A stretch of DNA of 64,000 nt. Origin: Deltaproteobacteria bacterium (GTDB lineage: Bacteria > Myxococcota > Kuafuiibacteriia > Kuafuiibacteriales > Kuafuiibacteriaceae). The stretch covers positions 149,408 to 213,407 of the forward strand of contig JAVJQW010000006.1 in the NCBI GenBank assembly GCA_040218735.1. Reading direction: 5' to 3'. Positions within the stretch are counted from its first letter, which is position 1; the number at the start of each line of letters is the position of its first letter. Of the stretch, positions 10,848-32,576 are shown in pieces. The translations under genes and the position numbers were made by a program. The notes beneath the pieces were generated by a model that had not been told where the DNA came from, did no database searches, and saw only the letters and a program-made list of their open reading frames with translations.

Positions 10848-10900
10848 TCGGATGACCCGACCGTCCTGACTTTTCGTTTCAAAGGTTCAAAGAGGTAGCT

Positions 10901-15145
<4,245 letters not shown>

Positions 15146-15840: not shown

Positions 15841-15842
15841 TC

Positions 15843-16709
15843 ATGGACGTCTTCGAGGAACACCGCCCCTTGCTCGAAGGGATCGCGTACCGCATGTGCG
15901 GCGTGCACGCGGACGCGCGGGACCTGGTGCAGGAGACCCACATCCAGTGGTGCGCTGCCGACCGCGCGGCGATCCGCGATCCCCGGGCTTGGCTCGTCAC
16001 GACGTGCAGTCGCCTGGCGATCGACATGCTGCGGTCGGCGCACCGGCGACGCATGAGCTACGTCGGCACGTGGCTACCGGAGCCGCTCGTGGATGAGGCG
16101 GCGCCGACCCCCGCGGAGGCGTTGGAGATCGACGAGTCCGTGTCGCTCGCGCTGATGGTCGCGCTCGAACGGTTGAGCCCCGCCGAGCGCGCGGTCTTCA
16201 TCCTGCACGACCTGTTCGGGTACCGCTTCGAGGAGATCGGACCGATGGTGTCGCGGAGCGAACCGGCCTGCCGCAAGCTCGCGTCACGAGCGCGGAGGGC
16301 GGTGCAGTCCGAACGGCCTCGCTTCGAGGCGACCGCCGAGATGCACCGCGATCTCCACGCGGCGTTCCTCGAGGCAGCGCGCCACGGTGATCTCGACGGT
16401 CTCGCGTCGCTGCTGACGGAGTCGGTGGCGCTTCACACCGACGGGGGCGGTCACGTCGAAGCGCTCACGTCGGTGCTCCGCGGACGCCGCGCGGTGTCGA
16501 AGTTCTTCATCGGCATCTGGCGAACGCACTTCACGCCCGCCGACGATGTCGAGGTCGTGCACCGTTGGTTCAACGGCAGCCCCGGCACCCTCGTCTTCAA
16601 GGACGGTGCGCTCGTGGTGTCGCTCGACTTCGCGATCGAGGACGGCAGCATCCAGAGCATCTACGCGCTGAGGAACCCCGAAAAGCTCACCGCCTTCGGC
16701 TACAGCTGA
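15843..16709 (+). CDS. ECF41 (SigJ-like) sigma factor with C-terminal SnoaL-like extension
   Basis: YVGTWLPEP linker, DGGG and C-terminal RNPEKL signatures. Confidence 0.92.
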   Translation: MDVFEEHRPLLEGIAYRMCGVHADARDLVQETHIQWCAADRAAIRDPRAWLVTTCSRLAIDMLRSAHRRRMSYVGTWLPEPLVDEAAPTPAEALEIDESVSLALMVALERLSPAERAVFILHDLFGYRFEEIGPMVSRSEPACRKLASRARRAVQSERPRFEATAEMHRDLHAAFLEAARHGDLDGLASLLTESVALHTDGGGHVEALTSVLRGRRAVSKFFIGIWRTHFTPADDVEVVHRWFNGSPGTLVFKDGALVVSLDFAIEDGSIQSIYALRNPEKLTAFGYS

Positions 16710-16724
16710 GGCCGCTCCGGCCCC

Positions 16725-17204
16725 TTGACCGAAGCCTCTGTCGGCCGGACGGTCGCGGGCGTGACCCACCGCGCTCTGTCGATCCTCTCGCCGTTCTTCG
16801 TCGCGTGCGCGACGACGCCCGCGCCCGCTCCGCGGCCCGACTTCGATGCGGCCCTCGCCGAGCACGTTCGGACGATCCGCGAGCGCGACCTCGCCGGCTA
16901 CGAACGCACGCTCACCGAGCGTGAGTCCTTCTCGATCATCTTCCCGAACGGACACCGGACCACGAAGCGCGCGGAGGCGATTGCGTTTCACCGCGAGTGG
17001 TTCGCGGACACCGCCTGGCAGATGAGCTTCGAAGAGGCGGAACGCATCGACGGCGGAGACAGCATGGTCGTCGTCTTCCGCACGGCCTACCGCGACGCGC
17101 CCGACGGGGAGGACCGCGAGGGGTGGCTGACGCTCGTGTTCGCGGTGGAGGGGGGCGCGTGGCGCCTCGTTCACGATCAGAACACACGCATTGCGCCGAA
17201 GTGA
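16725..17204 (+). CDS. NTF2/SnoaL-like (DUF4440-type) probable lipoprotein
   Basis: FFVAC lipobox-like segment; C-terminal WRLVHDQNT typical of NTF2 folds; start uncertain. Confidence 0.7.
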   Translation: MTEASVGRTVAGVTHRALSILSPFFVACATTPAPAPRPDFDAALAEHVRTIRERDLAGYERTLTERESFSIIFPNGHRTTKRAEAIAFHREWFADTAWQMSFEEAERIDGGDSMVVVFRTAYRDAPDGEDREGWLTLVFAVEGGAWRLVHDQNTRIAPK

Positions 17205-17249
17205 GCCCCGGCGACCCTCGCGGACCGCCGGGGCTTCGACGAATCGACC

Positions 17250-20200
17250 TCAGAGCGGGAGCTTGAAGTCGTCCTTGCCGCTGACCTCCTGGATCGTCGG
17301 CTCGAGCAGGCTCTTCAGGAACTTCTTCGTCGACGCATCCTCGTACAGCGACTTGATCCCGAACGCCTGCGGCGCGTCCGCCATCGACAGCTCGTCGATC
17401 TTCCCGGAGACGGCGTGCACGTACCCGTACAGGCTCTTGGCATCGTAGGGCCCCACGGCCACGGCGATCGCGTCGGCGAACGTCTTGTCCTCGGGGTTGA
17501 TGATGCGTTTGAGCTGACCGAGCGCGGTCTCGCCGAGCTTGTCGATGCCGCCCGAGTTGAGCGCGCCGAGGAGGCCCATCGTCTTCGAGAACGCGAAGCC
17601 GAAGTCGAAGTCGACGTCGGGGTCGCCTTGCCCGAAGGTGAGGGTCACCGCCCAGATCTTCAGCGTGAAGCCCTGCTCGGGGTTCATCGCCGTCTTGACC
17701 GCGGAGGTCGCGACGCCGCCGAAGATCTCGTTGGCGAGTTTGATCCCCGCGTCCGGGCTCGTGCTCACCGTGGCGACGAACCCGGCGATGAACCCACCGA
17801 GGAACGACAACACGAGTTTGCCCGCGTCGCGCTCACCCTCCGCGTAACTCATCGCCAAACTCATTGCGCCTCCGTACACCGCGGTCTGCGCGATCGCGGT
17901 GGTACTCACGCCGAACACCGTCGGTCCGAGCACCGCCGCGGCCAGCACCCCGGCGGCGTAGGCCGCGACCGCCACCGCGACACCGATCATCGCGCCGGCG
18001 ACGGCCGCCGCTGCGTTGAAGTCGTCGAACGCGTTGGCGGGGTCCGTGAAGATCTTCCCCTCCGTGCCCGCGACGAGGAAACCGACGACCCCCGCGACGA
18101 GCACGGTGATTGCGATGATCGCTCCGACGAAGCGCCCCGACGGATCCTGGAAGGTCACCGGGTTGTTGCTGCCGAACGCGTACCGGTTGTGCGGGACGGC
18201 CTGCATCGGGTCGGAGCCGATCGAACGGTCCGCGCTGATGAAGCGCCCGAGGTCCGCGTCGTAGTAGCGCGCCTGCATGAACATCAGGTCCGTGGTGCGG
18301 TCCAGCTCGTGCCCGCCGAACTTCGGCCGGAACTCATCCGTGCCGGAGCTCGACGCGTGAATCTCGCCGTACGGCGTGTAGTTCACGTGCGCGCTCTTGT
18401 TCCCGCTCTCGTCGGTGACCACCGTGGTGGAGCCGACCTGGTCCTGGTGCAGATAGCGCACGCCCACCGCGGGCTCACCCACGCCGTGGGCGCCCGGCGA
18501 CATCGCCGCCGAAGCCGAGCCCGAGCCGTGCGTCACGAAGAACACCGCTGCGACCGCCGCCGCGAGCGCGGGGCTGAAGCGCGGACGACCGTACAGCTTC
18601 ATGTCACGGCGACGACGGCGTAGGCCGACGAGCAGCAACAGGCACAGCACCGCGGGGAGCGCCACGGTGGTCACGCGCCACGCGGTACGACCCGCCGGCG
18701 ACGTCACGTACGCGAGCGCCGTGTGCCACGCGACGCGCGGACCGCCCGAGAGCGTCGCCGGATCGAACATCGCGGCGAGCATCTCGTGCTGACGCGACTC
18801 GAACTGCTCGACGAGCATCACCTCGGTGCGGGTGATCTGCGCGACGCGACCGGACGGCCCCTGCAGGTACTTCGTGTGCCGCGTCGGCCCCGACGCGGGG
18901 ACCGTGACCTCGTAGTCACTGCCGACGTAGTAGGTCGTGCTGCCTGTGGCCTCGACCTTCTTGAGCCGGTGCCCGTCCTGGTCGTAGACGAAGCTCGTCG
19001 CCTGACCGTTCTTGACGACCTGCACGAGGAGGTCCTCTTCGTTCCAGGTGTACGTCCACTGGTCGGTGCCTCGCGTCTTCTGCGTGAGGTTGCCGTTCGC
19101 GTCGTAGCTCATCGCGGTGCCGTCGCTGCGGCTCGTCGGTCGGTGACCGCCGAGCGCGTACTGGTACGTCTCCGTGATGAGGTTGTTCTCCGTCCGCTCG
19201 AGGAAGCTCCCGCCCGAGGAGTACACGTAGCTCCGAAGCCCGTAGGGACCCTCGGCGAACGCGAGCTCGCCGCGCGGCGTGTACTCGAAGTTCTGCGAGT
19301 CGGAGCCGAGCTGGTCGGTGATCTTCGTGATCTGATCGACGTCGTCCCACGCGTAGGTGAGGTCGAGCAGCGCGTTCTCACCTTCCTCCTCCTCCGCGCA
19401 CGGGTCGGAGGGGACACCGCTGGGGTGCGCCGTCAGACGGTGCCTCGACATCCGCGCGGTGACGACGTCGAAGTCGTAACAAGCCACGACGTCGTTGCCG
19501 AACGTCACCTGACCCACGCGACCGGATGCGTCGTAGTCCTCGTAGACCGCGTAGGGCGTGAACACGCCGTCCGCGTCGCCCGGCTCCCACAGCGCGATCT
19601 CCTCGAGGAACCGCGCCGAGTCGAACCCGTAGCGCGCGATCGAGCCGTCCGGGAAGCTCCGCTCCACGACGTTCCCCATCGCGTCGTGCCGCGTGCTCCA
19701 CGTGTACGCGACACCGTCGATCGTGAGCTGCGCGGCCGACTGCCGACCGTAGGCGTCGTAGCTCGTGGCGTAGGTGTGGTCCGGTCCGACGACCGACGTC
19801 AGCCGGCCCAACCCATTGGTCAGTGAAGAATCGTCGTAGCCGTAGCTGATCGTCCGCGCCGTCGCCGCGTTGGGCGCGAGGAACGACTTGGTCAGCGTCC
19901 GCCCCAGCGCGTCGTACGTACGCGACGCCTGGTTGCCGTTGGCGTCCGTCTCCAGCGACAGCTGTCCGAAGACGTCGTAGTCGAAGTGCGTCGTCCCGGT
20001 GTCGGTGTCCGCGACGGACCGCTTCCGGCCGATGGTGTCGTACGTCGTGGTGGTGGTCGCGTCCGGGCTCGTCACCGACGTCAGTCGGCCGAGCGGGTCG
20101 TACGCGTAGGTCGTCGTCGCGAACGTCGCGTCGACCTTCTTCACGAGGTTGTCGCGGAAGTCGACGTGGACGGTCGTCACCGACTGGTTCGGCTCCGTAC

Positions 20201-23200
20201 GCGTCATGACCATCGCGTGCGTCGAGGTGTCGTAGTCCGTGTACGCCGTCTCGATGCGACGCCCGTCGTGCAGGACGAACGCGGTCGGACGTGACTTCAC
20301 GTCGTACTCACTCTCCACCCAGCGCGGAACGGAACCCTCGAAGTAGGGCTCGGTGGTCCTCAGGACGAGCGTGTCGCGGAAGTACTCGCGGTCGCGAACG
20401 ATCGCGCTGCTGCCGATGCCGCGGCGACGCTCGCGGACGACTCGTCCCTGCACGTCGGTCCACGTCTCCGTCCAGTCCCACTCCTCCGGGCCGACGTGGT
20501 CGCGGAGGTTCCAGGTCTGCGTGACGAGGCCGAGGAACTCATCCTCGACGGGGTGTGTGTAGACGAACCTTCGGAACGGGGCCGCGTTGCCGTTTTCGTC
20601 GGGACCGAGGATCTCCAGCGGACGACCGAACGCGTCGAGCTCGATGGTCACGGTGTTGCCGCTGACGTCCGACCGCTCGACCTCGAGCGCGAAGCGCGGA
20701 TCGACCCGCTTCACGATCTTCTGGCCGATCGCGTTGATGATGAGCGCGAGGTGACCGAAGCCGTCGTACTCGTACTCGGTGGTGCCGAGGGGGGACGTGG
20801 CGGAGGTGACCAGGCCGCGAGCGTCGTAGGTCTTCTCCTGGCCGAGCCACTGCTGGTGGGTGTCGTCCCACGAACCCTCGAAGAGCACGTTCATGCGCGA
20901 GGGGAGGTCGTAGGTGACCTTGCGGTGGCTCAACGGGACGTTCGGGTTGCCCTGGTGAATCTTCACCTCGTACGGGTAGCCGATTCGCCAGGCGCTGAGA
21001 TCGTTGTGATAGAGCGTGTCGGTGATCAGCAGCGCCGATGGGTTCGCGGAGTCCGGCGTGTCGGACATCTGCACGGGGTTGCCGAACGTGTCGTAGCTGA
21101 ACGAACGCACCGCGCTGATGCACGCGTTCTGGCTGCCGAGGATGTACTCACACCGGTTCTGCGACGCGAGCCCCACCCGGTGAAGGTTCGGGTCCGCGAA
21201 GGACGGGTGCTGAACGTCGACGTACGTGAAGTCGATCTGCGCGAGGTCGACGCCGTTGCGGTCGAGGTGCTGGGAGGACGCAAAGCCCGCGAACGGGTGG
21301 TCCTGGCGGTAGGTCGTCGTCAGCGTGGTGCCGTCGGCACGATCCACGGTGACTTCACCGAAGCCGAGGAACCCGTGCCCGGCGAGGTGTGAGCGCGCCT
21401 GCGCGTACGCGTAACGATCCGAGGTGAGTTTGTCCTTGGCGTCGTTCTTCTCTGCCTTACGGACCACGAACAACGGCATGGTGACTTCGCGCTCGGGGTA
21501 GATGGCGCCGCTGCCCGGCGTGTAGACGTCCGAGCGGGTGAGCGGCGCGTACTCGACTTCGAAGCGACCGTAGAGGCCGTCGAGGAACTGTGTCGCGAGG
21601 CCGGTCTTGTACGACTTCGTCCAGTAGAAGTACGACGGGTCGCCGCTCAGCTGGTCGGTGCGCATGAAGATGCCGGTCATGCCCTCCAGGCCGTTGTCGA
21701 TCGCGAGGTAGTCGTCCTGCGGATCCTTCGGGATCGTCTCCTGCCAGACGTAACCGAGCCCATCGCTCAGGTGGATCTGGATGTCCGACGTCTCGTGCGA
21801 AGGATCCCACCGGCGGTTGAAACCGGTGACGAGGTCGGTGCGACCGTCGTCCGTGATGTTCGCGGGGCTCAGGCGGTGACGCCAGTCGATGCCGCCGACG
21901 GTGTAACCCCAGTCGCGGAAGTACCAGTTGTTCGGCGCGAGGTCGATCTGCACCTGGTAGGTCTGCGTGAGGCGCGGCGTGAGCGTGCGCCCGTTGCCGA
22001 AGAAGATGAGCAAGTTCTCTTGCAGGTCGGACTGCGCCTGGCTGGGCGGCGCCGTGTTGCCCTTGCGCGCCGAGCCGACGACGAGCGCGTCGGAGCGCCC
22101 GTCGCCGTTCACGTCGGAGGCGAGGATCTCGTAGAACGGATGCGGCCAGACGTCCGCCCAGTCCTTGGTCAACGTGCCCGACTGGGACGCGACGAGGAGC
22201 GTGATGCGCGAGTGTCCGCCGTACTGCGGGTCCGAGCCGCCCGAGGCGTGGAACGGGAAGCGGACCAGGAAGTCGACGCGCCCGTCGCCCGTGAAGTCAC
22301 CCGGGGTGAAGACGGGACCGTAATACTTCTCGTAGTCGAGGAGCATCGGAATAGCCGGCGCGGGCGGGACGTCGTCGAGCGTCCCCGTCTGGTGGAGGGT
22401 GAAGCCCGTCGGGGTGGTCAAAAACACGCGGAAGTCGAACATCAGCGCGAAGTCACCCGTCTCGGTGAGCTCGCGGTTCTTGATGGCGAGGACGTCTGCG
22501 CGTGCGTCGCCGTCGATGTCACCGATGTGAATGGTGTCCGCGAGGGAGATCTCGCCGCCGGTCTGTGCCGGCGTGTTCGAGAGGCCGTTCTCCGCAGAGC
22601 CGAGGAAGATCTCGTAGCCACCCGCGTTGTCGATCAGCGGGTGCTTGAGCCAGATGAGATCCGTACAGCCGTCGGCGTTGAAGTCACCCGCGTGGAAGCG
22701 CGGGCCCCAGTCCTGCGGGTTGCCGAAGGTGTCTTCGTAGTTTCCTGCGTTGACCGAGAACGGCTTGACCACGCGCAGGTTCGCGCTCTGGGGGGAGGTG
22801 ACGATCTGGTAGTCCGCGACCGGGTAGACGAAGTCCTGGCGGCCGTCGCAGTTGAAGTCACCCGAAGCGCCTTCGCCGTAGAGTGATGGCGAGCGAATCC
22901 CGAACTGCGGGTCGAGCGCGGAGTGATACTCCGAGAACGAAAACATCGACGTCGCGTTGGCGTCGAGGTCCGACCAACTCACCAGCGTCGGCGGGTAACA
23001 AACCGCGCCGGAGCACTCCTTTACACGATCGACGAAGAGTTGATCGCGGAGGTTCAGCGGACCGGTTTGGAACTCATAGTGTTTGACCTCGTCGAAGTTG
23101 GGCCCGTCCTTGACGTAGGTGCGGATGTGCTCGAGGGCCTTGTCTCGCACGATGCGGGCGCCACCCACGTAGCGGTTGTGGCGCTCGGTGTGGGTCGTGT

Positions 23201-24137
23201 ACTCGAACTCGACGACGCGATCGAACGGGACCTGCTGGTCGTCGTTCGAGCCGTACTCGATACGGACCGGGGCACAGTATGTCGTCCCGATGTCCTGGTA
23301 GAAGACGCGCATCACGTTGCCGTGGACGTCGGTGAGCTTGGTGAGCGGCCAGTCGAGGCGCGGAGCCTTCTGCCCCTCGACGGAGTCGACCAGCGCGTTG
23401 CAGCTCGACATCTCTTCGAGGCCGCCGAACTCCGCGGTCGAGCCGTTCTTGAGCTCCGCCTGGAAGGTGCACGGGCCCGAGAAGGTCGCCTCGGCGCCGG
23501 TGTTCTGGTCCCACGGCTGCCCCTCCTCGGCGGAGGACGCGGGGAGCTTCACCGTCGCGCGACAGCTGCCTGTGCTCTCGAAGCGGCTCCAGGTCTGCAT
23601 CTCGGTCAGGTAATTCGTGCCCGGCTCGCCGTAGTCGCCCGAGATGGCGAGGAGGCGGAGGCCGCCGGTGCAGAATCGGTCGTCGTCGTCGAGGCGGACC
23701 GCGCCCACCGCGCCGTCGTGCACCTTCGTGCGGGCGCAGCGCTCGACCCTCGGGAGGCCGGCGAGCGTGAAGCCGACGCCGAGGGCGCTGTCACCGGCCT
23801 GGCTGTTGTAGGTCGCGGCGAGCTTCGGCTCGATTCCGCCGATGCCCGGGGGCACCTCGATCGGGATTGCGTAGGTTGCAGCGCCGGTCGCGTTCACGTC
23901 GAACGCGGCTTCGATGCGGCCGACCGCGTACGGTGACTCGGGGACGGGTTCACCGCCCTCCGGTCCCGAGGGGGGTTCGGGTGGGTCTCTCGGAGGGGGC
24001 GGTGGCGGTCTGCCGGGCTCGCTCCCCGGCGGTGGGGTGCGCGCTTCGTCACGCGCGACGCCGTTGAGCTCGTCGCTCGAGCAGCCCGCGATGACGAGCG
24101 CGATGGTGAGAAGGTGAGTTGGGAATCGAATGTTCAT
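17250..24137 (-). CDS. Giant RHS/YD-repeat protein with fused TcB/TcC-like architecture, predicted lipoprotein, hydrophobic C-terminal cargo
   Basis: IAGC lipobox; SpvB-like N-domain (GAATYAIPIEVPPG...PKLAATYNS); about six FG-GAP-like D-x-x-x-D-G repeats; GFLGF motif; many YDxxGR repeats; RHS core ARYYDADLGRFISAD and NNPVTFQDPSG. Confidence 0.92.
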   Translation of the reverse strand: MNIRFPTHLLTIALVIAGCSSDELNGVARDEARTPPPGSEPGRPPPPPPRDPPEPPSGPEGGEPVPESPYAVGRIEAAFDVNATGAATYAIPIEVPPGIGGIEPKLAATYNSQAGDSALGVGFTLAGLPRVERCARTKVHDGAVGAVRLDDDDRFCTGGLRLLAISGDYGEPGTNYLTEMQTWSRFESTGSCRATVKLPASSAEEGQPWDQNTGAEATFSGPCTFQAELKNGSTAEFGGLEEMSSCNALVDSVEGQKAPRLDWPLTKLTDVHGNVMRVFYQDIGTTYCAPVRIEYGSNDDQQVPFDRVVEFEYTTHTERHNRYVGGARIVRDKALEHIRTYVKDGPNFDEVKHYEFQTGPLNLRDQLFVDRVKECSGAVCYPPTLVSWSDLDANATSMFSFSEYHSALDPQFGIRSPSLYGEGASGDFNCDGRQDFVYPVADYQIVTSPQSANLRVVKPFSVNAGNYEDTFGNPQDWGPRFHAGDFNADGCTDLIWLKHPLIDNAGGYEIFLGSAENGLSNTPAQTGGEISLADTIHIGDIDGDARADVLAIKNRELTETGDFALMFDFRVFLTTPTGFTLHQTGTLDDVPPAPAIPMLLDYEKYYGPVFTPGDFTGDGRVDFLVRFPFHASGGSDPQYGGHSRITLLVASQSGTLTKDWADVWPHPFYEILASDVNGDGRSDALVVGSARKGNTAPPSQAQSDLQENLLIFFGNGRTLTPRLTQTYQVQIDLAPNNWYFRDWGYTVGGIDWRHRLSPANITDDGRTDLVTGFNRRWDPSHETSDIQIHLSDGLGYVWQETIPKDPQDDYLAIDNGLEGMTGIFMRTDQLSGDPSYFYWTKSYKTGLATQFLDGLYGRFEVEYAPLTRSDVYTPGSGAIYPEREVTMPLFVVRKAEKNDAKDKLTSDRYAYAQARSHLAGHGFLGFGEVTVDRADGTTLTTTYRQDHPFAGFASSQHLDRNGVDLAQIDFTYVDVQHPSFADPNLHRVGLASQNRCEYILGSQNACISAVRSFSYDTFGNPVQMSDTPDSANPSALLITDTLYHNDLSAWRIGYPYEVKIHQGNPNVPLSHRKVTYDLPSRMNVLFEGSWDDTHQQWLGQEKTYDARGLVTSATSPLGTTEYEYDGFGHLALIINAIGQKIVKRVDPRFALEVERSDVSGNTVTIELDAFGRPLEILGPDENGNAAPFRRFVYTHPVEDEFLGLVTQTWNLRDHVGPEEWDWTETWTDVQGRVVRERRRGIGSSAIVRDREYFRDTLVLRTTEPYFEGSVPRWVESEYDVKSRPTAFVLHDGRRIETAYTDYDTSTHAMVMTRTEPNQSVTTVHVDFRDNLVKKVDATFATTTYAYDPLGRLTSVTSPDATTTTTYDTIGRKRSVADTDTGTTHFDYDVFGQLSLETDANGNQASRTYDALGRTLTKSFLAPNAATARTISYGYDDSSLTNGLGRLTSVVGPDHTYATSYDAYGRQSAAQLTIDGVAYTWSTRHDAMGNVVERSFPDGSIARYGFDSARFLEEIALWEPGDADGVFTPYAVYEDYDASGRVGQVTFGNDVVACYDFDVVTARMSRHRLTAHPSGVPSDPCAEEEEGENALLDLTYAWDDVDQITKITDQLGSDSQNFEYTPRGELAFAEGPYGLRSYVYSSGGSFLERTENNLITETYQYALGGHRPTSRSDGTAMSYDANGNLTQKTRGTDQWTYTWNEEDLLVQVVKNGQATSFVYDQDGHRLKKVEATGSTTYYVGSDYEVTVPASGPTRHTKYLQGPSGRVAQITRTEVMLVEQFESRQHEMLAAMFDPATLSGGPRVAWHTALAYVTSPAGRTAWRVTTVALPAVLCLLLLVGLRRRRRDMKLYGRPRFSPALAAAVAAVFFVTHGSGSASAAMSPGAHGVGEPAVGVRYLHQDQVGSTTVVTDESGNKSAHVNYTPYGEIHASSSGTDEFRPKFGGHELDRTTDLMFMQARYYDADLGRFISADRSIGSDPMQAVPHNRYAFGSNNPVTFQDPSGRFVGAIIAITVLVAGVVGFLVAGTEGKIFTDPANAFDDFNAAAAVAGAMIGVAVAVAAYAAGVLAAAVLGPTVFGVSTTAIAQTAVYGGAMSLAMSYAEGERDAGKLVLSFLGGFIAGFVATVSTSPDAGIKLANEIFGGVATSAVKTAMNPEQGFTLKIWAVTLTFGQGDPDVDFDFGFAFSKTMGLLGALNSGGIDKLGETALGQLKRIINPEDKTFADAIAVAVGPYDAKSLYGYVHAVSGKIDELSMADAPQAFGIKSLYEDASTKKFLKSLLEPTIQEVSGKDDFKLPL

Positions 24138-24180
24138 GCCTGCGAATAGCCAAAAGCTCCGCAGGATTTTTTGATGAGTT

Positions 24181-24816
24181 TCAGTCGCCGAGGAACGCGC
24201 GCGTCAACTCACGGATTTTGTGCTGCCAGTTGTAGACGACCTGAACCTTTACACCCATGAGACGAGCGACTTCGTTCGGTGAGCGGCCGTCGGTATAGGC
24301 GTGCCGAAACACGAGCTGACCTCGCGTCGGGAGAGCCTCTTGAAGATGCGCGCTGAGGCGCGCCGCGAGGTCGCGAGCGAGGAGCCCCTCCTCCGGCGAT
24401 GGGTTCGGTGTCGTCATCGAGTCCAACGCGTCGGAGCCGAGCGCTCTAAGGTGACCGCCGCGTTTCTGCGCGGCGGCCCGCGTCCTCAGGCGCGTGATCT
24501 CGCGCTCCGCGACGAGGCCGACGTAGCGCTCCAGCGACAGTCCGCGATCGGGATCCCACGCGCGCAGTCGTTCGCCGCCGCGACCGACGAGCACGAGCCA
24601 GACCTCCTGGATCATGTCGTCCACGGTGTCCGGGATCTTCTGACGAGGGTCCCGCGCGCGCGCGCGCCGCGCACGCGCGCGCACGACGGGGAGCAGCCGG
24701 GCGACGAGCTCGTCGCCCGCGGCTGCGTCCCCCGCCAACGCCTGGCGGACGAGGAGCTGATCGTGCTCGACGACCTCGGCCTCGAGCCCGGCCGGTCTGG
24801 CGGTTTCGGTGCTCAT
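24181..24816 (-). CDS. ECF-type sigma-70 factor
   Basis: Region 2 (DDMIQEVW...WDPDRG) and region 4 HTH (SPNEVARLMGVKVQVVYNW); 211 aa. Confidence 0.88.
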   Translation of the reverse strand: MSTETARPAGLEAEVVEHDQLLVRQALAGDAAAGDELVARLLPVVRARARRARARDPRQKIPDTVDDMIQEVWLVLVGRGGERLRAWDPDRGLSLERYVGLVAEREITRLRTRAAAQKRGGHLRALGSDALDSMTTPNPSPEEGLLARDLAARLSAHLQEALPTRGQLVFRHAYTDGRSPNEVARLMGVKVQVVYNWQHKIRELTRAFLGD

Positions 24817-24826
24817 GGCTGTTCGC

Positions 24827-27127
24827 TCAGTGGTGCAGGTCGATGGCCGAGAAGTCCGTTACGGTCTTGGCGTCGGGCTCGGTGATGTTCACGACGAGTC
24901 CTGCCTTCACGTCATCGAGGTTGCTGAAGTCGATGCTCGAGCCGTTGAGGTCCACCTCGATGTCGAGGTGGTTGCCGAGCACCCAGTCGACGTCGGGGGA
25001 GGCCGGCAGCGCGATGTACTCCTCCGTCAGCTTGCCGTTCACGAGGGGCGGCCCGTTGAGGACGAGGTAGGGGTTGTCGATCGCCGTCTTCGGATCGCCG
25101 TCGGCGGTGAGCTCCAGCGACATGACGATCTTCCCCGGCTCGAACTGCGCGGGGCAGTCGGGGCACAGTGGAACGATCGGCTGCGGACCCAGCGAGCCGA
25201 TCGCGGTGCGCTCCGGGTGGCTCTCGAAGGGGCACTGCGCACCGCAGGCGGCCACGTCCTGCCAGGGGGCGGTGGCCGCCGCGTCGCCGCAGACGATGCG
25301 CCCCGAAGTGTAGCTCGGGTTCCACGTGATGGGGCCGGGGCGCGACGGCGTGGTGCAGTCCGGCGCAAAGCCACACGCCTGCACCTCGGCGGCACACGCG
25401 GCGAGCGTGCCGGCGGGGATGGGCTCGGTACCGACGATGTTCTGCGCGCAGGTGACCAGCGCCGGACAGCTCCGCAGCGCGTGGTCGAGGCGGTCGACGG
25501 CGAGCATGCGAACCGGGACGCCGGCGGCGGTCGGACGGCAGAGGTCACGCCCCGTCAGGTAGAGCACGCGGGCCAGCGCGAGGCGCGTCAGCGGCGCGTC
25601 GCCTTGCATGAGCCGCTGGTGTTGGGCGCGGGCGGCGGCGCCAGCAACGAGCGCGGCGCTCACGGAGCTCCCGGTGAATGCGCGGGGGAGGGCGTCGAGG
25701 TAGTCGTTCGTCCCGCCCGCGCCGCAGAGCGGATCCTTGGGCATCCCGTGGGCGGCCGAGTTGGCGGCGTAGACGTGTTGGCCCGGCGCGACGAGCGGCG
25801 GCTCTGCGCCGGGGATCGCGACACCCGTGGCGCGCAAGCGTTCGTCGACGGCGCCGACCGCGATCGCCGCGTGGGTGATCGTCGGATCGTTCACGCGGCA
25901 GGTCGCTTCCTGGCTCCACTGCCCGGGGTAGTACAGCGCCGGGGTGTTCGGCGTCGCGCCACACGTCACGTGGAGGACGTTCGCCGGCGGCGTCGGGAAC
26001 GTGCCGGCCGGGACGCGGACGGCGCGGTTGCCGGACGCGGCGCTGACGAAGACCGGACGCTGTCCGTCGCGATCCATCCGCGCGGCGACGTCGAGCATGT
26101 AACGAATGACTTCGCCGGCTGCGTTCTCGTGGCTGGTGCACGAACCTCCGACGCCGCTGATGCCCGCCGGCTGCGCGAGCTCGGGCGGGAAGCCGAGGCT
26201 CATCTGCAGGACGAGCGGGCGCGGCGGGCTGGTGTTCGTCCCGCCAAAGAGCGCGGCGTCGATGCCGATCGCGACGTCGGCCATCGTGCCCTGACCGCCG
26301 GCGTCCAGCACCGCGATGTCCGTCATGCGGAGGCTGGGGCCGACCTGCCGCGCGAACGTCGCCATCCCGCGCCCGTGGACGTGGTGGTTCGTTCGGTTCG
26401 GGTGAAGGTCCGTCACCGAGGTGACGCCGAGGGAAGCGTGCAACGCCGCGCCGACGCCGGCGTCGATCAGCGCGAGGTCGACGAGCTCTTCGCTCGACGC
26501 CGGCGGCGATACGCCTTCGCTGGCGGGGAGGCCGATGTCCGTGAGGTGCCACGTCAGCATGTCGTGGGTGGGGACCGCCTGGGCGCTCGCGACCGAGGCG
26601 TCACACTCGCGGCCGACGTAGAACTCGTCGTCGGCGAGGAGGCCGTTGCGGTCCGCGATCGTGCTTCGGATCTCTTCGACGGCGTCACACTGCCAGTCCG
26701 GCTGCACGGAGAGCGTCCCGGAGTTGTCCGAGAACCGAACGCGAAGGAAGCGGAGGTGGCCGTCGGCGCGCGCCGCCGGCCAGGCGCGCGCGGGCAGCAC
26801 CGACTCGATCGCGACCGCGACCGGGCCGTTGAGACACGAGGGCTGATTCGGCGGGCAGAACCACTGGCTCGCGTGGCTGGCCAGGTAGCCCTCGAGGTCC
26901 GCGTTGCTCTGCGCGAGGAACGCGAGGTCTGGCCACACGTTGGCGAGGCCGACGGGGATCTCGACGAAGAAGCTGTCGGCCCGACAGGGGCGCGCCGCGG
27001 TGCGAACGCGCGAGGGTCGGGTGCGGGCGGAGTCGATCGTCTGGTCTCGTTGTTCTGGCGCCGGGGATGAGCAGGCGAGGGCGGCCAACGTGGCGGCCAT
27101 CAGGGTGCGCTCGCGCGAAGTCTTCAT
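24827..27127 (-). CDS. Subtilisin-like (S8) serine peptidase, predicted lipoprotein
   Basis: LIDAG (Asp), HGRGMA (His), AASGN (oxyanion Asn), TGSSVSAALVAG (Ser); ALAC lipobox; ATG at 27127 overlaps the upstream stop (ATGA); Cys-rich C-terminus. Confidence 0.85.
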   Translation of the reverse strand: MKTSRERTLMAATLAALACSSPAPEQRDQTIDSARTRPSRVRTAARPCRADSFFVEIPVGLANVWPDLAFLAQSNADLEGYLASHASQWFCPPNQPSCLNGPVAVAIESVLPARAWPAARADGHLRFLRVRFSDNSGTLSVQPDWQCDAVEEIRSTIADRNGLLADDEFYVGRECDASVASAQAVPTHDMLTWHLTDIGLPASEGVSPPASSEELVDLALIDAGVGAALHASLGVTSVTDLHPNRTNHHVHGRGMATFARQVGPSLRMTDIAVLDAGGQGTMADVAIGIDAALFGGTNTSPPRPLVLQMSLGFPPELAQPAGISGVGGSCTSHENAAGEVIRYMLDVAARMDRDGQRPVFVSAASGNRAVRVPAGTFPTPPANVLHVTCGATPNTPALYYPGQWSQEATCRVNDPTITHAAIAVGAVDERLRATGVAIPGAEPPLVAPGQHVYAANSAAHGMPKDPLCGAGGTNDYLDALPRAFTGSSVSAALVAGAAARAQHQRLMQGDAPLTRLALARVLYLTGRDLCRPTAAGVPVRMLAVDRLDHALRSCPALVTCAQNIVGTEPIPAGTLAACAAEVQACGFAPDCTTPSRPGPITWNPSYTSGRIVCGDAAATAPWQDVAACGAQCPFESHPERTAIGSLGPQPIVPLCPDCPAQFEPGKIVMSLELTADGDPKTAIDNPYLVLNGPPLVNGKLTEEYIALPASPDVDWVLGNHLDIEVDLNGSSIDFSNLDDVKAGLVVNITEPDAKTVTDFSAIDLHH

Positions 27128-27888
27128 GGGGTCTCCTCCTTGGGGGCTCGAGCTCGATAATCGAGTCGTGAGGTCAGCCACTGGTGTGGGCCGATGGTGA
27201 GTGCATCGCGGGCACCGGAGTACGCCGCGGCGGCTTCGCCCTCGGGCGTGAGGGCGAAGTGGATGGTGCGTGTGCCGAAGTCGCGTCCGAGGAGCGCCTC
27301 GGCGTCGGCTTCGTAGCGGACGATGCCGGTCGCGCCGACGTCGTACGCGGGGTTCGCGATCTCGACGAGCTGTTCGGGCGCGCCGACGGGCGAGACGAAC
27401 ACCCGCAGCTGGACGGGAGCGTTCGGGGCCGTCGACGGTCGGAGCAACCAGCGGACGCGGCTCGTCGGCACGAAGACGTCACCGGGCGCCTCGTCGCCCC
27501 GCATCTGGACGACACCACCCAGCGGCGCGTTGAGCGCGTAGCTCGGGAGCGCGGACGTCGTGTCGGGCCGCGGCAAGAAGACGAAGAGCAGGGCGGCCGC
27601 CGCCACGGCGATCGTCGCGACCGCCGGCCAGCGTCGTGACCGTCTCTGCTTCAACGCCCCCTTGGCGAAGTCCGACAGCTCCGACGACACCGGCTCGCCG
27701 TAGTCCGAAGCCAGCGCGCGACACTCCGCGCACGTCGCGAGGTGCGCCTCGATCGGCTCGCGGCGGTCGTCGTCGACGCGGCCGCGCGCGTAGGCGACGA
27801 GGTCGCGGTCGTCGAGGTGCTCACCGTCGGTTTCGACGTCCGGAATCTCGCGCAGCATTCGATCGATCTCCTCGTCCTCGCGGCTCAC
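27124..27888 (-). CDS. Zinc-finger (zf-HC2/ZAS) transmembrane anti-sigma factor
   Basis: HLATCAEC motif, basic patch plus single TM (RRWPAVATIAVAAAALLFVFL), about 150-aa extracytoplasmic domain. Confidence 0.85.
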   Translation of the reverse strand: MSREDEEIDRMLREIPDVETDGEHLDDRDLVAYARGRVDDDRREPIEAHLATCAECRALASDYGEPVSSELSDFAKGALKQRRSRRWPAVATIAVAAAALLFVFLPRPDTTSALPSYALNAPLGGVVQMRGDEAPGDVFVPTSRVRWLLRPSTAPNAPVQLRVFVSPVGAPEQLVEIANPAYDVGATGIVRYEADAEALLGRDFGTRTIHFALTPEGEAAAAYSGARDALTIGPHQWLTSRLDYRARAPKEETP

Positions 27889-30617
27889 CGCCGGCCCCCC
27901 AACACGTAGAACGCGGACCAGGTGTCGTCGTTGGACGCCAGCGCCGCGCGTCGGAACGCATCGATGGGGGTCCTCGCACCCCCCGCGCCGTAGAAGCGCT
28001 CGACGAACGCGGCTGCGTCGTCGTCCGAGACGCGGCGGGTCGTCGCGACGACGGTTCGTGAGCCGCTCGCGATGAAGGCATCGGGGAGGCCGATACGAAT
28101 CGTCCGACCGAGCCGTCCGCTGCGCCCGGTCTCACATCCGCTGAGGACGACGCGCCGCGCGCGGGGGCGTCGCGCGAAGAGGTCCTCCACCGTGAGGCGC
28201 TCGTCGTTCGCCAACACGAGGTGTGCGTCCCAAGGGGTGGCGGCGTCGAGGACGCCGTGTCCGGCGAAGTGGAAGTGCGACGTGTTGGCGACTGCGTCCA
28301 GGACGCGCGCGCGCGTGGCGTCGCGTCCGAGGAGGAGCGCAGACGCTTCGAGGCGCTCTCCTACGCGCTCCGCCTCGCGGCGCGCGACGGGGAGGTTCGA
28401 AGCCGTGTCGCCGACGACGACGGCTGGGCCCGTGCCTTCCTCGGATTCGAGGACCAGCAGGCTGGGGAACGGGACGAACGCGATCGCGGTGGCGTCGAGC
28501 CAGCGCTTCGCTTCTGCACGGGTGCCGAGGACGCTCCACGGATCGTCGGCACCCATCGTCGCGACGAACAGGGTTCCGTTCTTTGCGTCCCACCAGGGCG
28601 CGGTCGGTCGCGCGGTGAAGCGGCGGATCGTTCCGCGCGTGACGCCGAACCACACGGGGGTGTCGCCGTCTTCAAAGGGTACGAGCAGCGCGTCGTTCGA
28701 GCTCAGCGAAGCCTGGATGGGTTCGACGCTGTCGAGCGCCGTCGAGCCGAACGTGTTCTCGACGAACGCAAACGCGGCGTCGAAGACCTCCTCCAGCGCC
28801 TGGCGCTTCTTCGCGGTCTCAGCCCGAAACGCGGGGAGGTCCTTCGGGGCGACGAGCTCCTCCTCGCGGTTTCGTTTCTCGAGCGCCGCGCGTTGCTCGT
28901 CGTAGCGGTCGAGGCCGGCGCGCCACTTCAGGCGGTCCTCTTCGTCGAGGCTGTCGAGCATCGCGCGTCCGTAGAGCACGCGGTAGGTCTGCGCGCGCGA
29001 ACGGTCGGCCGCGAGCACGGCGAGGTCGTTGCGGTCGTTCGCGGCGAAGGCCTCGACGGCGTCGGCGAAGAGCTGCCGTCGGTCGTCGATGAACGTCGCG
29101 CGGTCCTTGGCGATCTCGGTTCGGCGCGTCACGGCTTCGAGGTGGTTCATCGCCTCGATGAAGTGCGCCGCCGACCGTTGGGGCTGCGCCCGCGCGAGGC
29201 CGTAGTGGGCGCGCCAGGTGAGGTCCGATGCGCGGCCTGCCGATTCGCGCGTCGCCCGCTCGAGCGCGCTCTCGTACGCACGGGCCGCGTCGTCGCTGCG
29301 CCCGTCGGCCAACGCGAGGTGACCGCGCATCAGGCGCGTGAGGACGACGACATCCTCGGGGAGGGAGGCGTCGGCCTCCATCGAAGCCAGGAGCGTTCGT
29401 GCGCCCGCGAGGTCGCCGCCTTGATAGCGCGCGTAGAGGAGGTTCGTCGCGGGGATGTAGGCGAGGTCTCGGCGCCCGGCGCTAACAAGAATGTCGCGAG
29501 CTCGCGCGAGCTCGCCTTGCACGCGGTTCCAGTCACGCTCGAACGCGCCCGCCGCCATGCCGCGGGAGAGCACCCAGCCGCGGTCGGCCGCGTACGAGCC
29601 CTGTTCCGTTACCGAAGCGCCTTCGACCCAACGCTCCGCGCGCTGTAGCAGCGACCACGCTTCTTCGAAGCGCCCGACCTCCGCCAAAGCGAGGTAACGT
29701 GCAGCGACGACGTACCGAAGCGGTTCGACCAAGGCCGCCGCATCCGCGATCTCGATCGCCGCCTGCGTGACCTGGAGCGCCTGTCGGTACTGCCCCAGCT
29801 CCGCGAGCACCTGCCCGCGGTAATACGCAGCGAGCACGATCCCCACCTCGTCGCCGATCGCCTCCGAGCCCGCCGTCGCTCGGTCGAGCAACGCCAACGC
29901 CTCCGGGAACCGCCGCTCACGCAGTCGGTAGTACGCGAGCGTGCGCAGCGCGCGGTAACGCTCGCTCTGCCCTTCCCGTGCGGCGGCTTCCGCCCAGACC
30001 TCGATCGCCGCGTCGGTGTCCTCGGGTCGAACGCGTTGAACGAGCTTCACGCGGAGCTCGTTTGCTTCGACGCGGAGCATCCCCTCGAGCGCGCCGACGG
30101 TGTCGAGTCGAGCTTCGAGCTTCGCGAGCGCGGCAGGCGCGTCGGTCTCCATCAACGCCCACTCCTCGGCGAGCTCGGGCCACTGGCGGGACTCGGGGAC
30201 CTTCTGCACCGACCACCGCTTCGCGCCGACGCTCAGCGTTCCGCTCTCGGTGATCGGCGCGAAGTACACCAGCACCCGCCCCGCGCGCGCCGCGGTGGCG
30301 GTCACGGAGAGGGGTTGCTCGCCGAGCCTCGCCGCGACGGGCACGTACGGGGCGGCCATCGAGACGTACGGCGCGTGGGCGTCGTCGAAGACGTGGGTGA
30401 CCGCGCCCGCCCGCGCGCTCAGGATGCGCGCGCCGTGAAGCCGCAGATCGGCGGCCACCGGCTTCGCCGATTCCTCCGTACGCGGACACGCAACTGCACA
30501 CACCAACACGAGAATCCAGGCTCCTGAGCGGACCACCTCCAACCCGTGAGGGTGCAGGTTGCCTGCCAACCCCTTCCTAACCATTTCGGCGAATCGCTTT
30601 TTTTTCCCGCCCCACAT
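27885..30617 (-). CDS. TPR-CHAT (caspase-like) protease, probable lipoprotein
   Basis: HFAGHG and VLSGCETG catalytic dyad motifs; long helical TPR-like region; hydrophobic WILVLVCAVAC segment suggests a true start near 30536-30584. Confidence 0.88.
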   Translation of the reverse strand: MWGGKKKRFAEMVRKGLAGNLHPHGLEVVRSGAWILVLVCAVACPRTEESAKPVAADLRLHGARILSARAGAVTHVFDDAHAPYVSMAAPYVPVAARLGEQPLSVTATAARAGRVLVYFAPITESGTLSVGAKRWSVQKVPESRQWPELAEEWALMETDAPAALAKLEARLDTVGALEGMLRVEANELRVKLVQRVRPEDTDAAIEVWAEAAAREGQSERYRALRTLAYYRLRERRFPEALALLDRATAGSEAIGDEVGIVLAAYYRGQVLAELGQYRQALQVTQAAIEIADAAALVEPLRYVVAARYLALAEVGRFEEAWSLLQRAERWVEGASVTEQGSYAADRGWVLSRGMAAGAFERDWNRVQGELARARDILVSAGRRDLAYIPATNLLYARYQGGDLAGARTLLASMEADASLPEDVVVLTRLMRGHLALADGRSDDAARAYESALERATRESAGRASDLTWRAHYGLARAQPQRSAAHFIEAMNHLEAVTRRTEIAKDRATFIDDRRQLFADAVEAFAANDRNDLAVLAADRSRAQTYRVLYGRAMLDSLDEEDRLKWRAGLDRYDEQRAALEKRNREEELVAPKDLPAFRAETAKKRQALEEVFDAAFAFVENTFGSTALDSVEPIQASLSSNDALLVPFEDGDTPVWFGVTRGTIRRFTARPTAPWWDAKNGTLFVATMGADDPWSVLGTRAEAKRWLDATAIAFVPFPSLLVLESEEGTGPAVVVGDTASNLPVARREAERVGERLEASALLLGRDATRARVLDAVANTSHFHFAGHGVLDAATPWDAHLVLANDERLTVEDLFARRPRARRVVLSGCETGRSGRLGRTIRIGLPDAFIASGSRTVVATTRRVSDDDAAAFVERFYGAGGARTPIDAFRRAALASNDDTWSAFYVLGGRR

Positions 30618-30695
30618 TTTCTCGCTAAGAGCGAGATACCCCGGTTGAGTGGCAGAATCTGCAAGAGTTCTGCGCTCGAGCGAGCGCAGGGGCGC

Positions 30696-32576
30696 CTACG
30701 ACCCAAGGAGCGCCGTCTGGAGCTCGTGCGCGAGCCGCTCCTTGGAGAACGGCTTGGGGATGACGTGCACGGATGGGTCGAGCTTGCTCGCGTGCGTAAG
30801 TGTCTCGCTGGCGTATCCTGACATCAGCGCGACGGGGAGGTCGGGCCAGCGCTCGGCGATGCGTTGTTTGAGCTTGAGGCCGTCGACGCCGCGGGGGAGC
30901 ACGACGTCGGTCAGGACCACGTCGAACCGCGCGGACTGGGGCGGCGTGCGTTCGAGGAGCTCGAGCGCTTCGATCCCGTCGCTGACCTCTTCGACGCGGT
31001 AGCCGAGGCGCTCGATCAGCCGTCGAATCATGCGACGGACGGTCGGGTCGTCCTCGACGAGGAGGACACGCTCACCCTTGGGCATCGCCTCGACCTCGAC
31101 CCGCGGGAGCGCGACGTCGGAGTCCTCCACGCAGCGCGGGAAGTGAATGCGCACAGTCGTCCCGCGTCCGGCCTGGCTGTCGATCGCGACGAACCCGCCG
31201 GACTGCTTCACGAACCCGTACACGGTACTCAGCCCGAGCCCGGTGCCGCCGTCTCCCTTCGTCGTGAAGAACGGCTCGATCGCTCGCTCGAGCACCTCGG
31301 CCGTCATCCCCGCGCCATCGTCCGCGACCTCCAGGAGGATCCACTGGCCGAGCGGGAGCGACGGGTGCAGCGCGTCGAGGACGGGGACGTTTTGCGTGCG
31401 GATGTGCAGCGTGCCGGTCTCTTGAGTCATCGCGTCGCGTGCGTTGATCGCGACGTTGAGGAGCGCGCTCTGGAGCTGCCCCGTGTCGATGCGGCACTTC
31501 CACAGCGACGGGTCGAGATCGATCTCGACCTTCACCTGTTCGCCGAGCGTCCGCGTGAGGATCGTGCGCTCCTCCTCCACGAGTCGATTGATGTCGCACT
31601 TCGTCGGCGTGAGCGATTGGCGACGCGCGAACGCGAGGAGGTGGCGCGTAAGATCGGCCGCGCGCTGACTGGCGTCGCGGATCTGTTGCGCGGCGTCGGC
31701 CACGTCCTCGGGGTCGTTCGCGGCCGGATCGAGCATCTCGACCGCGGAGAGGATGATCATGAGGAGGTTGTTGAAGTCGTGCGCGATCCCGCCGGTGAGT
31801 TTGCCGAGCGCGTCCATCTTCTGAAGCTGGTGAAGTTGCTCCACGAGCTGAGTGCGTTCGCGTTCGATGCGTCGCGCCTGGGTGATGTCGGTCGATACGA
31901 GGGTGACCCGATCCACGGAGCTGCCGTGCATGATCGGACCGAGGCGCGTGGAGTAGAGGCGCTCGTCGGCGCCGAACCCGATGAACATCTCGTAGGCGGC
32001 GGGGGTGCCGGTCGCGAAGACGCCATCGATCGCGTCGCGCACCATCCGGACCTGATCCGGTCGAGCGTAGTCCAGGACGGACACGCCGATGAGGCTCTGC
32101 GGAGAGACGCCGGAGTGCGTGCGGCTGATGAAGCGGATGCGGTAGTCGCGGTCGACGACCGTGAAGATGTCCGGCGCGTTCGACAGCATCGCGCCGAGGA
32201 GGCGTTGGGTCGCATCGCGTTCGGCTTCGACGCGCTCGGTCTTCGTGACGTCGATACTGATGAAGCAGAACAGACGCCGAGCGCCACGCTCGTTAGGCAC
32301 GGCGAACACCCAGTTGTGGTACGTCGCCCGCGGAGTCTCGCGCCCGACCGCTTCCGACTCGAAGAACTGCGGCGCCCCCATGGTCTGGGCGTTGTCGACG
32401 GTCGCTCGAAGGCGTTCGTGGTAGTCGGGGTCGATGTACTCCAACAAGGAGCGCCCCTCGACACCGACGCCGTCCCGATTCAAGAACACGATGTCGAAGT
32501 TCTCGTCGACGTACGCGATGAACTCCGGAGCGCGCATGACCTGCGCACGCCAGTCCTCATCGTTCAACCAGTCCAC
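30696..32576 (-). CDS. Cytoplasmic hybrid histidine kinase (2x PAS, HisKA, HATPase, receiver)
   Basis: GGIAHDFNN H-box, NARDAM, EPFFTTK, GTGLGL; receiver LLVEDD...LTDVVLP...KPF. Confidence 0.93.
   Translation of the reverse strand: MDWLNDEDWRAQVMRAPEFIAYVDENFDIVFLNRDGVGVEGRSLLEYIDPDYHERLRATVDNAQTMGAPQFFESEAVGRETPRATYHNWVFAVPNERGARRLFCFISIDVTKTERVEAERDATQRLLGAMLSNAPDIFTVVDRDYRIRFISRTHSGVSPQSLIGVSVLDYARPDQVRMVRDAIDGVFATGTPAAYEMFIGFGADERLYSTRLGPIMHGSSVDRVTLVSTDITQARRIERERTQLVEQLHQLQKMDALGKLTGGIAHDFNNLLMIILSAVEMLDPAANDPEDVADAAQQIRDASQRAADLTRHLLAFARRQSLTPTKCDINRLVEEERTILTRTLGEQVKVEIDLDPSLWKCRIDTGQLQSALLNVAINARDAMTQETGTLHIRTQNVPVLDALHPSLPLGQWILLEVADDGAGMTAEVLERAIEPFFTTKGDGGTGLGLSTVYGFVKQSGGFVAIDSQAGRGTTVRIHFPRCVEDSDVALPRVEVEAMPKGERVLLVEDDPTVRRMIRRLIERLGYRVEEVSDGIEALELLERTPPQSARFDVVLTDVVLPRGVDGLKLKQRIAERWPDLPVALMSGYASETLTHASKLDPSVHVIPKPFSKERLAHELQTALLGS

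Follow-up and report, generated by a model that had tools for sequence, protein, structure and literature searches.

What would join a caspase-like protease, a membrane anti-sigma factor, a subtilase, a sigma factor of the extracytoplasmic function (ECF) class and a giant RHS protein in one string of genes? The question is posed by five co-oriented open reading frames (ORFs) on the minus strand of the stretch analysed here (the window: 64,000 nucleotides of contig JAVJQW010000006.1, from a deltaproteobacterium whose 11.6-Mb genome comes in 70 contigs). Judged by comparison of sequences, the first four genes, encoding the TPR-CHAT protein, the anti-sigma factor, the S8 subtilase and the sigma factor, are a real, conserved and apparently CRISPR-independent envelope cassette. 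Sequence comparison, structure models and analogy together make it reasonably probable that this cassette is a split, two-protease relative of the DdvA/DdvS system of Myxococcus xanthus, that is, a sigma switch gated by proteolysis. The RHS gene, going by its neighbourhoods across genomes, is one interchangeable output of the cassette, with a link kept in this genus only. The five ORFs are:

27885-30617, minus strand: TPR-CHAT lipoprotein, 910 amino acids (aa; Pfam TPR and CHAT, E 1e-26)
27124-27888, minus strand: single-pass anti-sigma factor, 254 aa (zf-HC2 with H49, C53 and C56)
24827-27127, minus strand: Cys-rich S8 subtilase lipoprotein, 766 aa (Peptidase_S8, E 3e-7, over the cut-off)
24181-24816, minus strand: ECF sigma factor of a CHAT-linked subfamily, 211 aa (TIGR02937, 55.3 bits against a cut-off of 42.9)
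17250-24137, minus strand: RHS/YD lipoprotein, 2295 aa (SpvB, FG-GAP, YD repeats and Rhs core)

The anatomy of the locus bears out what a sequence-only reading of the window had described. The CHAT and anti-sigma ORFs overlap in different frames by GTGA (27885-27888) and the anti-sigma and S8 ORFs by ATGA (27124-27127), whereas gaps of 10 bp and 43 bp (24138-24180) separate S8 from sigma and sigma from RHS, respectively. GC content at third codon positions is 0.82-0.91 in the five ORFs, a range typical of real genes in this genome. Domains were assigned with Pfam and NCBIfam profiles, and alignments and domain matches agree with the earlier statement that the CHAT dyad, the S8 triad and the anti-sigma HxxxCxxC motif are intact: H787 and C828 of CHAT are invariant in 18/18 aligned homologues, and D222, H251, N367 and S488 of S8, comprising the Asp-His-Ser triad and the oxyanion Asn, are present in all 13 homologues. 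The lipobox-like N-termini of CHAT (C44), S8 (C19) and RHS (C19) are likewise there when called by eye and regular expression; the expression matched 8 of the 18 CHAT alignment rows, several of the remaining rows having uncertain starts. Translation of CHAT probably begins near 30536 (GTG) rather than at the ATG at 30617, because the lipobox then lies about 17 residues in. A long GTG extension of the S8 ORF (start 27181) was rejected in favour of the ATG at 27127.

The TPR-CHAT protein consists of an N-terminal beta domain, a TPR solenoid and the caspase-like CHAT protease. In the anti-sigma factor, a zinc-type cytoplasmic domain (HxxxCxxC) is followed by a single hydrophobic helix (residues 87-105) and a beta-sandwich-like periplasmic domain of 149 residues, close to the 150 residues estimated before, and its gene adjoins that of an ECF sigma factor. 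The region 4 motif of the sigma factor reads VVYNWQHKIR; its profile gave four weak matches among solved structures, none of them named DdvS.

Co-occurrence of the four genes, which the sequence-only reading had proposed as a check, was found both within and outside the host genome. Four cassettes in this genome (contigs C54, C61, C59 and C17) share the order CHAT, anti-sigma, S8, sigma, and the paralogous proteins are 34-58% identical to those of the window. Sigma factors of the subfamily lie within 6 kb of a CHAT gene in 14 of 18 cases, compared with 17 of 102 for ECF-like sigmas overall, and a sigma is found near 15 and an S8 gene near 9 of the 21 CHAT ORFs; the genome-wide anti-sigma, S8 and CxxC profiles were built from these loci, so that the counts are partly circular, and the Rhs-core query missed an RHS gene on contig C66. 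Outside the genome, the S8 alignment picked out 12 loci at strong E-values (6 complete, 4 cut by a contig end and 2 with CHAT and S8 only), with a weak 1.2-kb match as the thirteenth. A sigma-profile search of 301 genomes of the phylum matched 19 genomes and gave 33 hits outside the host; 6 of these had already been examined, and 20 of the remaining 27 were retrieved, from 16 genomes. Among these 20 loci, an anti-sigma gene is present in 19, CHAT in 16, S8 in 16 and all four genes in 15. The counts include related genomes, which are not independent, and are no statistical test; the named relatives are Myxococcales, Nannocystaceae and Deltaproteobacteria records. No cas gene, Csx30 or Csx31 was found among the called genes of the window or the 8 proteins submitted to PADLOC, which returned just two borderline CHAT-region matches; no dedicated array or genome-wide cas search was made.

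Two loci are recorded here for their own sake. At L064:8336-12883 (G002:C113), a sigma of the subfamily without a nearby CHAT has acidic-repeat proteins as neighbours; two promoter sites there, identical and of 21 bits each, are separated by 155 bp. At L039:5787-9100 (G006:C9), sigma and CHAT are each split into two ORFs, by assembly error or decay.

The reading of the cassette as a split DdvA is drawn from a fusion in the same genome and from a fold match. Directly after a related sigma gene, at G000:C23, one chain combines an anti-sigma part (96.7% profile probability) with a TPR-CHAT part (100%); the best 150 anti-sigma representatives, for comparison, are all at most 320 aa long. The structure model of the window's CHAT protein (predicted local confidence, pLDDT, 90.8) was closest in Foldseek to Csx29 (8eey) and DdvA (8rw5/8rot), at E 2e-12 to 4e-12 and whole-chain TM-scores of 0.37-0.43, a relation by fold only: the sequence search against solved structures gave no matches. 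A complex of CHAT with the periplasmic domain of the anti-sigma, the prediction suggested in the sequence-only reading, scored 0.48 against 0.00 for the best of three controls, with runs agreeing in at least 76% of contacts and partner pLDDT of at least 72. The mark applied to such scores is reached by 116 of 157 solved pairs and 2 of 215 mismatched pairs. We grade the support as weak because 0.48 falls in the band up to 0.60, which holds just 18 of the 157 solved pairs and both mismatches. Fusion, fold match and this weak complex score together favour proteolytic release of the sigma, as had been proposed, as the best reading.

A candidate for the bond that would be cut first (site 1) stands out in the anti-sigma factor:

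27499-27501, minus strand: Arg130 of the anti-sigma, candidate site-1 cut (proposed from conservation)

This residue lies 25 residues outside the membrane helix and is, apart from Gly and Pro, the best conserved periplasmic residue of the protein. Its equivalent is Arg in 25/26 cassette anti-sigmas, and among 149 library representatives 136 have Arg and 8 Lys at this position; the residue after it is Gly, Ser or Ala in 137/150 representatives, and the residues before it vary. Because separase cleaves after Arg (PMC11506125) and because Arg130 is so conserved, the bond between it and the following small residue is the most likely candidate for the site-1 cut. As a separate observation, anti-sigmas of a second subfamily (G000 C67, C64, C58, C50, C54:5185, C42, C14 and C17:219788) lack the HxxxCxxC zinc motif and retain the helix, an LPxY motif and the juxtamembrane Arg.

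The cassettes also share a motif. A two-block search of 13 upstream regions returned AAAAGGAMC-N13-SSTAG de novo, with a score of 275.8 against 156.6-160.9 in shuffled sets (three shuffles only, at 40 restarts each against 300 for the real set). The motif precedes cassettes, S8 genes and varied secreted neighbours. When a matrix was built from 7 sites of other genomes, the sites before the C17 astacin gene, the C61 CHAT gene and the C59 CHAT gene ranked 1-3 among 293 intergenic hits in the host genome; the C17 CHAT site ranked 19th, and a 12.4-bit site precedes the C61 M4 gene. Three held-out loci of another family (L088-L090) each have two back-to-back sites of 12-19 bits between divergent S8 and anti-sigma genes; at L024 no site of at least 11 bits was found. 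Since the motif precedes S8 genes, the subtilase is probably itself a target of the sigma and would belong among the outputs at least as much as among the triggers. A second sigma subfamily has another promoter of the same spacing, TSAGRTCH-N13-YRTAK, before the sigma gene and secreted neighbours (G000:C67:86516, C67:88829, C50:34534 and C54:10309); 5 of its 21 genome hits are intergenic, 4 of them at CHAT-sigma loci, for a pattern built from these very sites, and with a looser version hits in 14 loci were for the most part scattered, while 3 loci had none.

What the cassettes adjoin differs from copy to copy; the sequence-only reading had proposed a survey for such variable cargo downstream of sigma. 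Of the three paralogues, one lies next to an astacin/FG-GAP lipoprotein, another next to a thermolysin-like M4 protein and the third next to a lipoprotein together with a 706-aa secreted protein. This secreted protein has a homologue, 33% identical, beside a cassette in an unrelated metagenome record, where the same cargo pair occurs; here it lies upstream of the cassette, there downstream. Because it accompanies the cassette on either side, we regard the link between such neighbours and the cassette as functional. Further CHAT-sigma loci of the genome, more distant ones, adjoin trypsin-like, tyrosinase, sulfatase, FG-GAP and di-haem proteins.

In the window the corresponding place is taken by the RHS gene. 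Such a gene follows sigma in 1/4 host paralogues, 1/13 S8-selected loci (L021, same genus) and 0/20 sigma-selected loci. In the sister species (L021), the gap between sigma and RHS holds a strong site (18.5 bits, leave-one-out). In a related strain, RHS and the last part of the sigma gene lie together on one contig, where the A-tract is longer by one base. The accession numbers of S8 and RHS in a near-identical record lie far apart, a distance given no weight here, as its meaning depends on the layout of that record's contigs. Three elements of the window belong here:

24146-24172, minus strand: putative, degenerate sigma promoter of RHS (gapless alignment to the sister-species site)
30636-30661, minus strand: candidate autoregulatory promoter of the cassette (resembles the RHS site; weak, post hoc)
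24139-24165, minus strand: hairpin over the -10 element and the RHS ribosome-binding region (z -2.26, 4/200 shuffles)

The RHS site ends 8 nt before the ATG, compared with 9 nt in the sister species, so that the RHS mRNA would be nearly leaderless. A transcript begun at this local promoter would not form the hairpin over the ribosome-binding region. At the same RHS position L021 has a hairpin of different sequence (z -3.80, 0/200 shuffles) and L044 has none; judged from the two cases in which it occurs, the window and L021, the hairpin may serve to block translation of read-through transcripts. A sigma-70 promoter scan of 16500-31000 gave no sites.

We propose the following course of events. 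At rest, the ECF sigma would be bound by the zinc domain of the membrane anti-sigma, whose periplasmic domain would dock on the exported TPR-CHAT protein. A cue at the TPR arm would activate the CHAT dyad to make a juxtamembrane cut in the anti-sigma, the bond after Arg130 being the likeliest site. A protease of RseP type, for which the genome offers an M50 gene, could then complete cleavage, as RseP does with a DdvA that lacks its TPR-CHAT (PMC11506125), and free the sigma to transcribe its own cassette, S8 and the adjoining secreted-protein gene; in this genus that output would be RHS, read from a promoter in the 43-bp gap.

The sequence-only reading knew of no characterised mechanism for such a locus, which is too strong: DdvA/DdvS amounts to a fused version, with a cryo-electron microscopy structure and demonstrated cleavage by RseP, although cleavage by CHAT is unproven there as well (PMC11506125). 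Shared with DdvA/DdvS (PMC11506125, PMC6061681; PDB 8rot, 8rw5) are a myxobacterial host, an ECF sigma, a single-pass zinc anti-sigma, an extracytoplasmic TPR-CHAT with a His-Cys dyad, and an autoregulated locus with several local promoters and a second operon peptidase, which is of C25 type there and S8 here. The differences are equally plain. DdvA is one polypeptide, whereas the anti-sigma and TPR-CHAT are separate here, and CHAT brings a lipobox-like leader and an N-terminal beta domain of its own. DdvS acts at GTAA-n16-CGT promoters with CBASS and CRISPR targets, in contrast to the other motif and the secreted enzymes or RHS found here. The cassette would thus work like DdvA/DdvS and yet, not being one chain, stands outside it.

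Three further systems invite comparison. ECF54 (PMC7826278, PMC8999054) also combines an ECF sigma with a subtilase and a TPR-CHAT protein, and proteolytic control has been proposed for it; however, it is described as 100% actinobacterial and without an anti-sigma, and has a carboxypeptidase-regulatory-like neighbour and a GTATCAG/CTCC promoter, whereas our cassette has a membrane anti-sigma (19/20 loci), another motif and myxobacterial or deltaproteobacterial relatives. In the type III-E Craspase, the TPR-CHAT protease Csx29, our top fold match (8eey), cuts the anti-sigma Csx30 and so relieves inhibition of an ECF-like sigma, CASP-sigma, that has motifs at its own locus (PMC10028731); unlike the envelope cassette, that system is cytoplasmic, has a soluble Csx30 and is triggered by Cas7-11 with target RNA. 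The type III-B SAVED-CHAT/PCaspase system of Haliangium (bioRxiv 10.1101/2023.06.23.546230) likewise holds a CHAT, a second protease and a sigma in one myxobacterial locus, but is cytoplasmic and activated by cA3, with a caspase as its second protease and no membrane anti-sigma described. Operons of sigma and metacaspase genes have been noted in myxobacteria (PMC3501461). In a full-text literature search, with most subscription papers outside its reach, no split CHAT/anti-sigma/S8/sigma cassette with a membrane anti-sigma was found.

Several observations weigh against proteolytic gating by CHAT. Export of CHAT, its binding to the anti-sigma, cleavage and control by the sigma are predictions from sequence and models. 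CHAT activity of DdvA was not seen in the work reported in PMC11506125, where dyad mutants behave like wild type at rest. The whole-chain TM-score to DdvA is only 0.37, and the geometry differs, since a linker and a helical scaffold in DdvA take the place of the beta-sandwich periplasmic domain found in the window's anti-sigma. Arg130 could be structural. Two loci, L024 and L043, have CHAT and S8 without a sigma or anti-sigma in the DNA examined. Finally, the window's RHS site is without the GG of the consensus, its score of 5.9 bits is one that about 0.1% of genome positions reach, and the matrix scan found no good consensus site before the window's CHAT gene.

These last points bear on the strongest competing account, which concerns the RHS link alone: RHS would be a passenger with a decayed sigma promoter, read through from the cassette or expressed independently. 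The low matrix score and the loss of GG from the -35 box suit it, and no terminator-like site lies between the sigma and RHS genes. However, position and spacing equal those of the sister-species site, GG-less A-tract -35 boxes occur at cassette sites elsewhere (L065, L042), and a similar variant precedes the window's CHAT gene (p about 0.02, post hoc). For this variant, a match to the RHS site as good as that of 30636-30661 is found in 1.9% of 1200 random upstream regions, and only that control counts: a pattern with exactly two occurrences in the genome was derived from these same sites, which makes it circular. The matching distance to the ATG, the GG-less sites elsewhere and the variant before CHAT lead us to think it somewhat likely that the window's RHS copy depends on the sigma, with the passenger account deserving serious, if lesser, credence.

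A second alternative turns the cassette around: CHAT and S8 would be outputs, exported proteases that mature or degrade extracellular proteins, induced by an ordinary ECF/anti-sigma pair that housekeeping site-1 proteases or loss of zinc set free. This would explain why the motif stands directly before S8 in rearranged loci (L039, L042, L088-L090) and before CHAT-first operons, and why 2/12 S8 loci have CHAT and S8 without a sigma. ECF operons, however, normally autoregulate their own sensor genes. Moreover, an anti-sigma is fused to TPR-CHAT at C23 and in DdvA, and CHAT is kept where S8 is missing (sigma near 15/21 CHAT ORFs, S8 near 9/21). We consider this account unlikely.

S8 itself might instead be the site-1 protease of the anti-sigma, or be processed by CHAT in a two-step cascade like that from SAVED-CHAT to PCaspase. 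It is found in 16/20 sigma-selected loci, its catalytic residues are intact, its ORF overlaps that of the anti-sigma, and there is a precedent for CHAT activating a second protease (bioRxiv 10.1101/2023.06.23.546230). Yet sigma/anti-sigma/CHAT loci occur without S8 (L065; C42, C56, C17:219k) or with a trypsin-like protease in its stead, and the conserved Arg-small site suits the specificity of the caspase family better than that of a broad subtilase, which leaves this account at long odds.

Least probable is the earlier proposal, in which the cassette serves specifically to switch on an antibacterial RHS toxin: sigma-RHS synteny with the 18.5-bit site in the sister species, the related-strain contig joining RHS to sigma, and same-shell relatives with HINT domains and variable tips speak for it, but RHS is found in so few loci, other copies adjoin astacin, M4 or secreted proteins with the same promoter, and the tip is as conserved as the shell, matches no toxin domain and is followed by a convergent gene. 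Of the sequence-only interpretation, the conserved envelope cassette thus stands and proteolytic release is plausible, whereas the toxin framing is neither general nor proven.

The toxin question turns on the C-terminal part of the RHS protein:

18507-18677, minus strand: insertion before the Rhs core (hydrophobic helix, basic run and signal-peptide-like segment)
17253-18134, minus strand: RHS tip, 294 aa (hydrophobic helices rich in Gly and Ala, followed by some 165 residues without a recognised family)
17204-17236, no strand assigned: strong hairpin in the interval from RHS to DUF4440, two convergent genes (z -2.93, 0/200 shuffles)

The protein has the SpvB and beta-propeller architecture of TcdB/TcaC-type proteins, an intact Rhs core and a DPSG motif at residue 1998, and its orthologue in G001 is 75% identical over 1215 aa. 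It shares with RHS polymorphic toxins of this type (PMC3482391) a signal peptide (here by eye), SpvB, an integrin-like propeller, RHS repeats and an Rhs core with DPxG; it differs in having no recognisable toxin tip or immunity gene and in the extra hydrophobic insertion before the core. That insertion, present in the aligned P0028, P0029, P0030 and P0032, seen by hydropathy in P0040 and absent from the aligned P0033, P0039 and P0047, may tether the shell. The tip gave no Pfam or PADLOC match; its Atlas matches, to clusters either without a name or of generic RHS type, scored 0.90 with low recognition and were set aside as unusable. HINT domains and unrelated tips are present in some relatives that share the shell, but between the two species compared the tip is not variable: 109/129 and 136/165 residues (the latter 82%) are identical to G001, compared with 381/470 (81%) in the shell. 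No co-oriented immunity gene follows RHS, there being no room, and the next gene is convergent in both species; an antisense ORF (16284-17174) was rejected as an immunity gene, being the shadow of two genes on the plus strand. For some toxin families no immunity protein is listed (PMC3482391), and the Gly/Ala-rich helices could insert into membranes. On this evidence an antibacterial role for RHS is possible and, to us, rather doubtful. A second co-oriented string ending in an SpvB/RHS gene, at G000:C66:48690-58909 (L018), comprises an ECF sigma, an anti-sigma, a C14 caspase-domain protein and two lipoproteins before it, and ends convergent on a CHAT gene.

A bolder version of proteolytic gating starts from the end of the subtilase:

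24830-25204, minus strand: C-terminal domain of S8, PxP...CxxC and beta sandwich (four residues invariant in 17/17)

Its model (pLDDT 86.3) had no clear family match in a fold search, the best hit being a generic beta sandwich at Z 7.8. Small secreted CxxC proteins adjoin several S8-less CHAT loci (G000 C56:3848, C17:41459, C17:41885, C23:89157, C17:221491 and C52:216918; L065:12622). Profile comparison with the S8 domain gave 67.6% for one subfamily and 4.2% for the other, with controls at 1.0% or less; leaving one out, E was 0.018-0.5 for 4/7 proteins and 3/7 had no match, which is suggestive of a relation. Taken whole, payload included, the following scheme strikes us as improbable, if coherent. 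The S8 sandwich or a free CxxC lipoprotein would be the ligand of the TPR arm, exposed by self-processing of S8 or by a foreign protease; CHAT would then cut after Arg130, and the freed sigma would make more S8 and one secreted weapon, here a membrane-tethered, immunity-free RHS shell silenced by its hairpin unless the local promoter fires. If so, more than 12 such switches would run in parallel in one predatory genome, and each would have a promoter variant and a payload to itself.

Other genes of the window are noted for orientation. Right after rpoB/rpoC (6591-15145), a flavodoxin-fold reductase, an ECF sigma extended by a SnoaL-like part and a DUF4440 lipoprotein (15238-17204) are unrelated to the cassette. 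Just upstream of CHAT (30696-33284) lie, co-oriented, genes for a PAS hybrid histidine kinase and for a lipoprotein that is rich in Cys and bears RDAGFPPP repeats, a pair not found beside the three paralogous cassettes. Two tandem Band 7/SPFH genes (53878-56036) and two tandem matrixin-like metalloprotease genes with a VWA-FHA protein (58165-62641) follow, and 2.7 kb before the window start a 2790-aa lipoprotein ends in a CHAT domain with no sigma nearby (G000:C54:138373-146745).

Returning to the cassette as a split relative of DdvA/DdvS, its interest lies in the step that the DdvA model leaves open, namely whether the site-1 cut in an anti-sigma is made by a caspase-like domain outside the cytoplasm. 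That step is hard to settle in DdvA because a single chain is both enzyme and substrate there and no signal for it is known. The split form separates the two and offers a predicted cut site at Arg130, a predicted reporter promoter and many paralogues for specificity swaps; this window adds an RHS cargo kept in one genus, the candidate cut site and a predicted promoter ready for a reporter. If the proposed mechanism holds, a sensor type known from phage defence would have shifted, in these bacteria, to the control of secreted proteases and RHS proteins.

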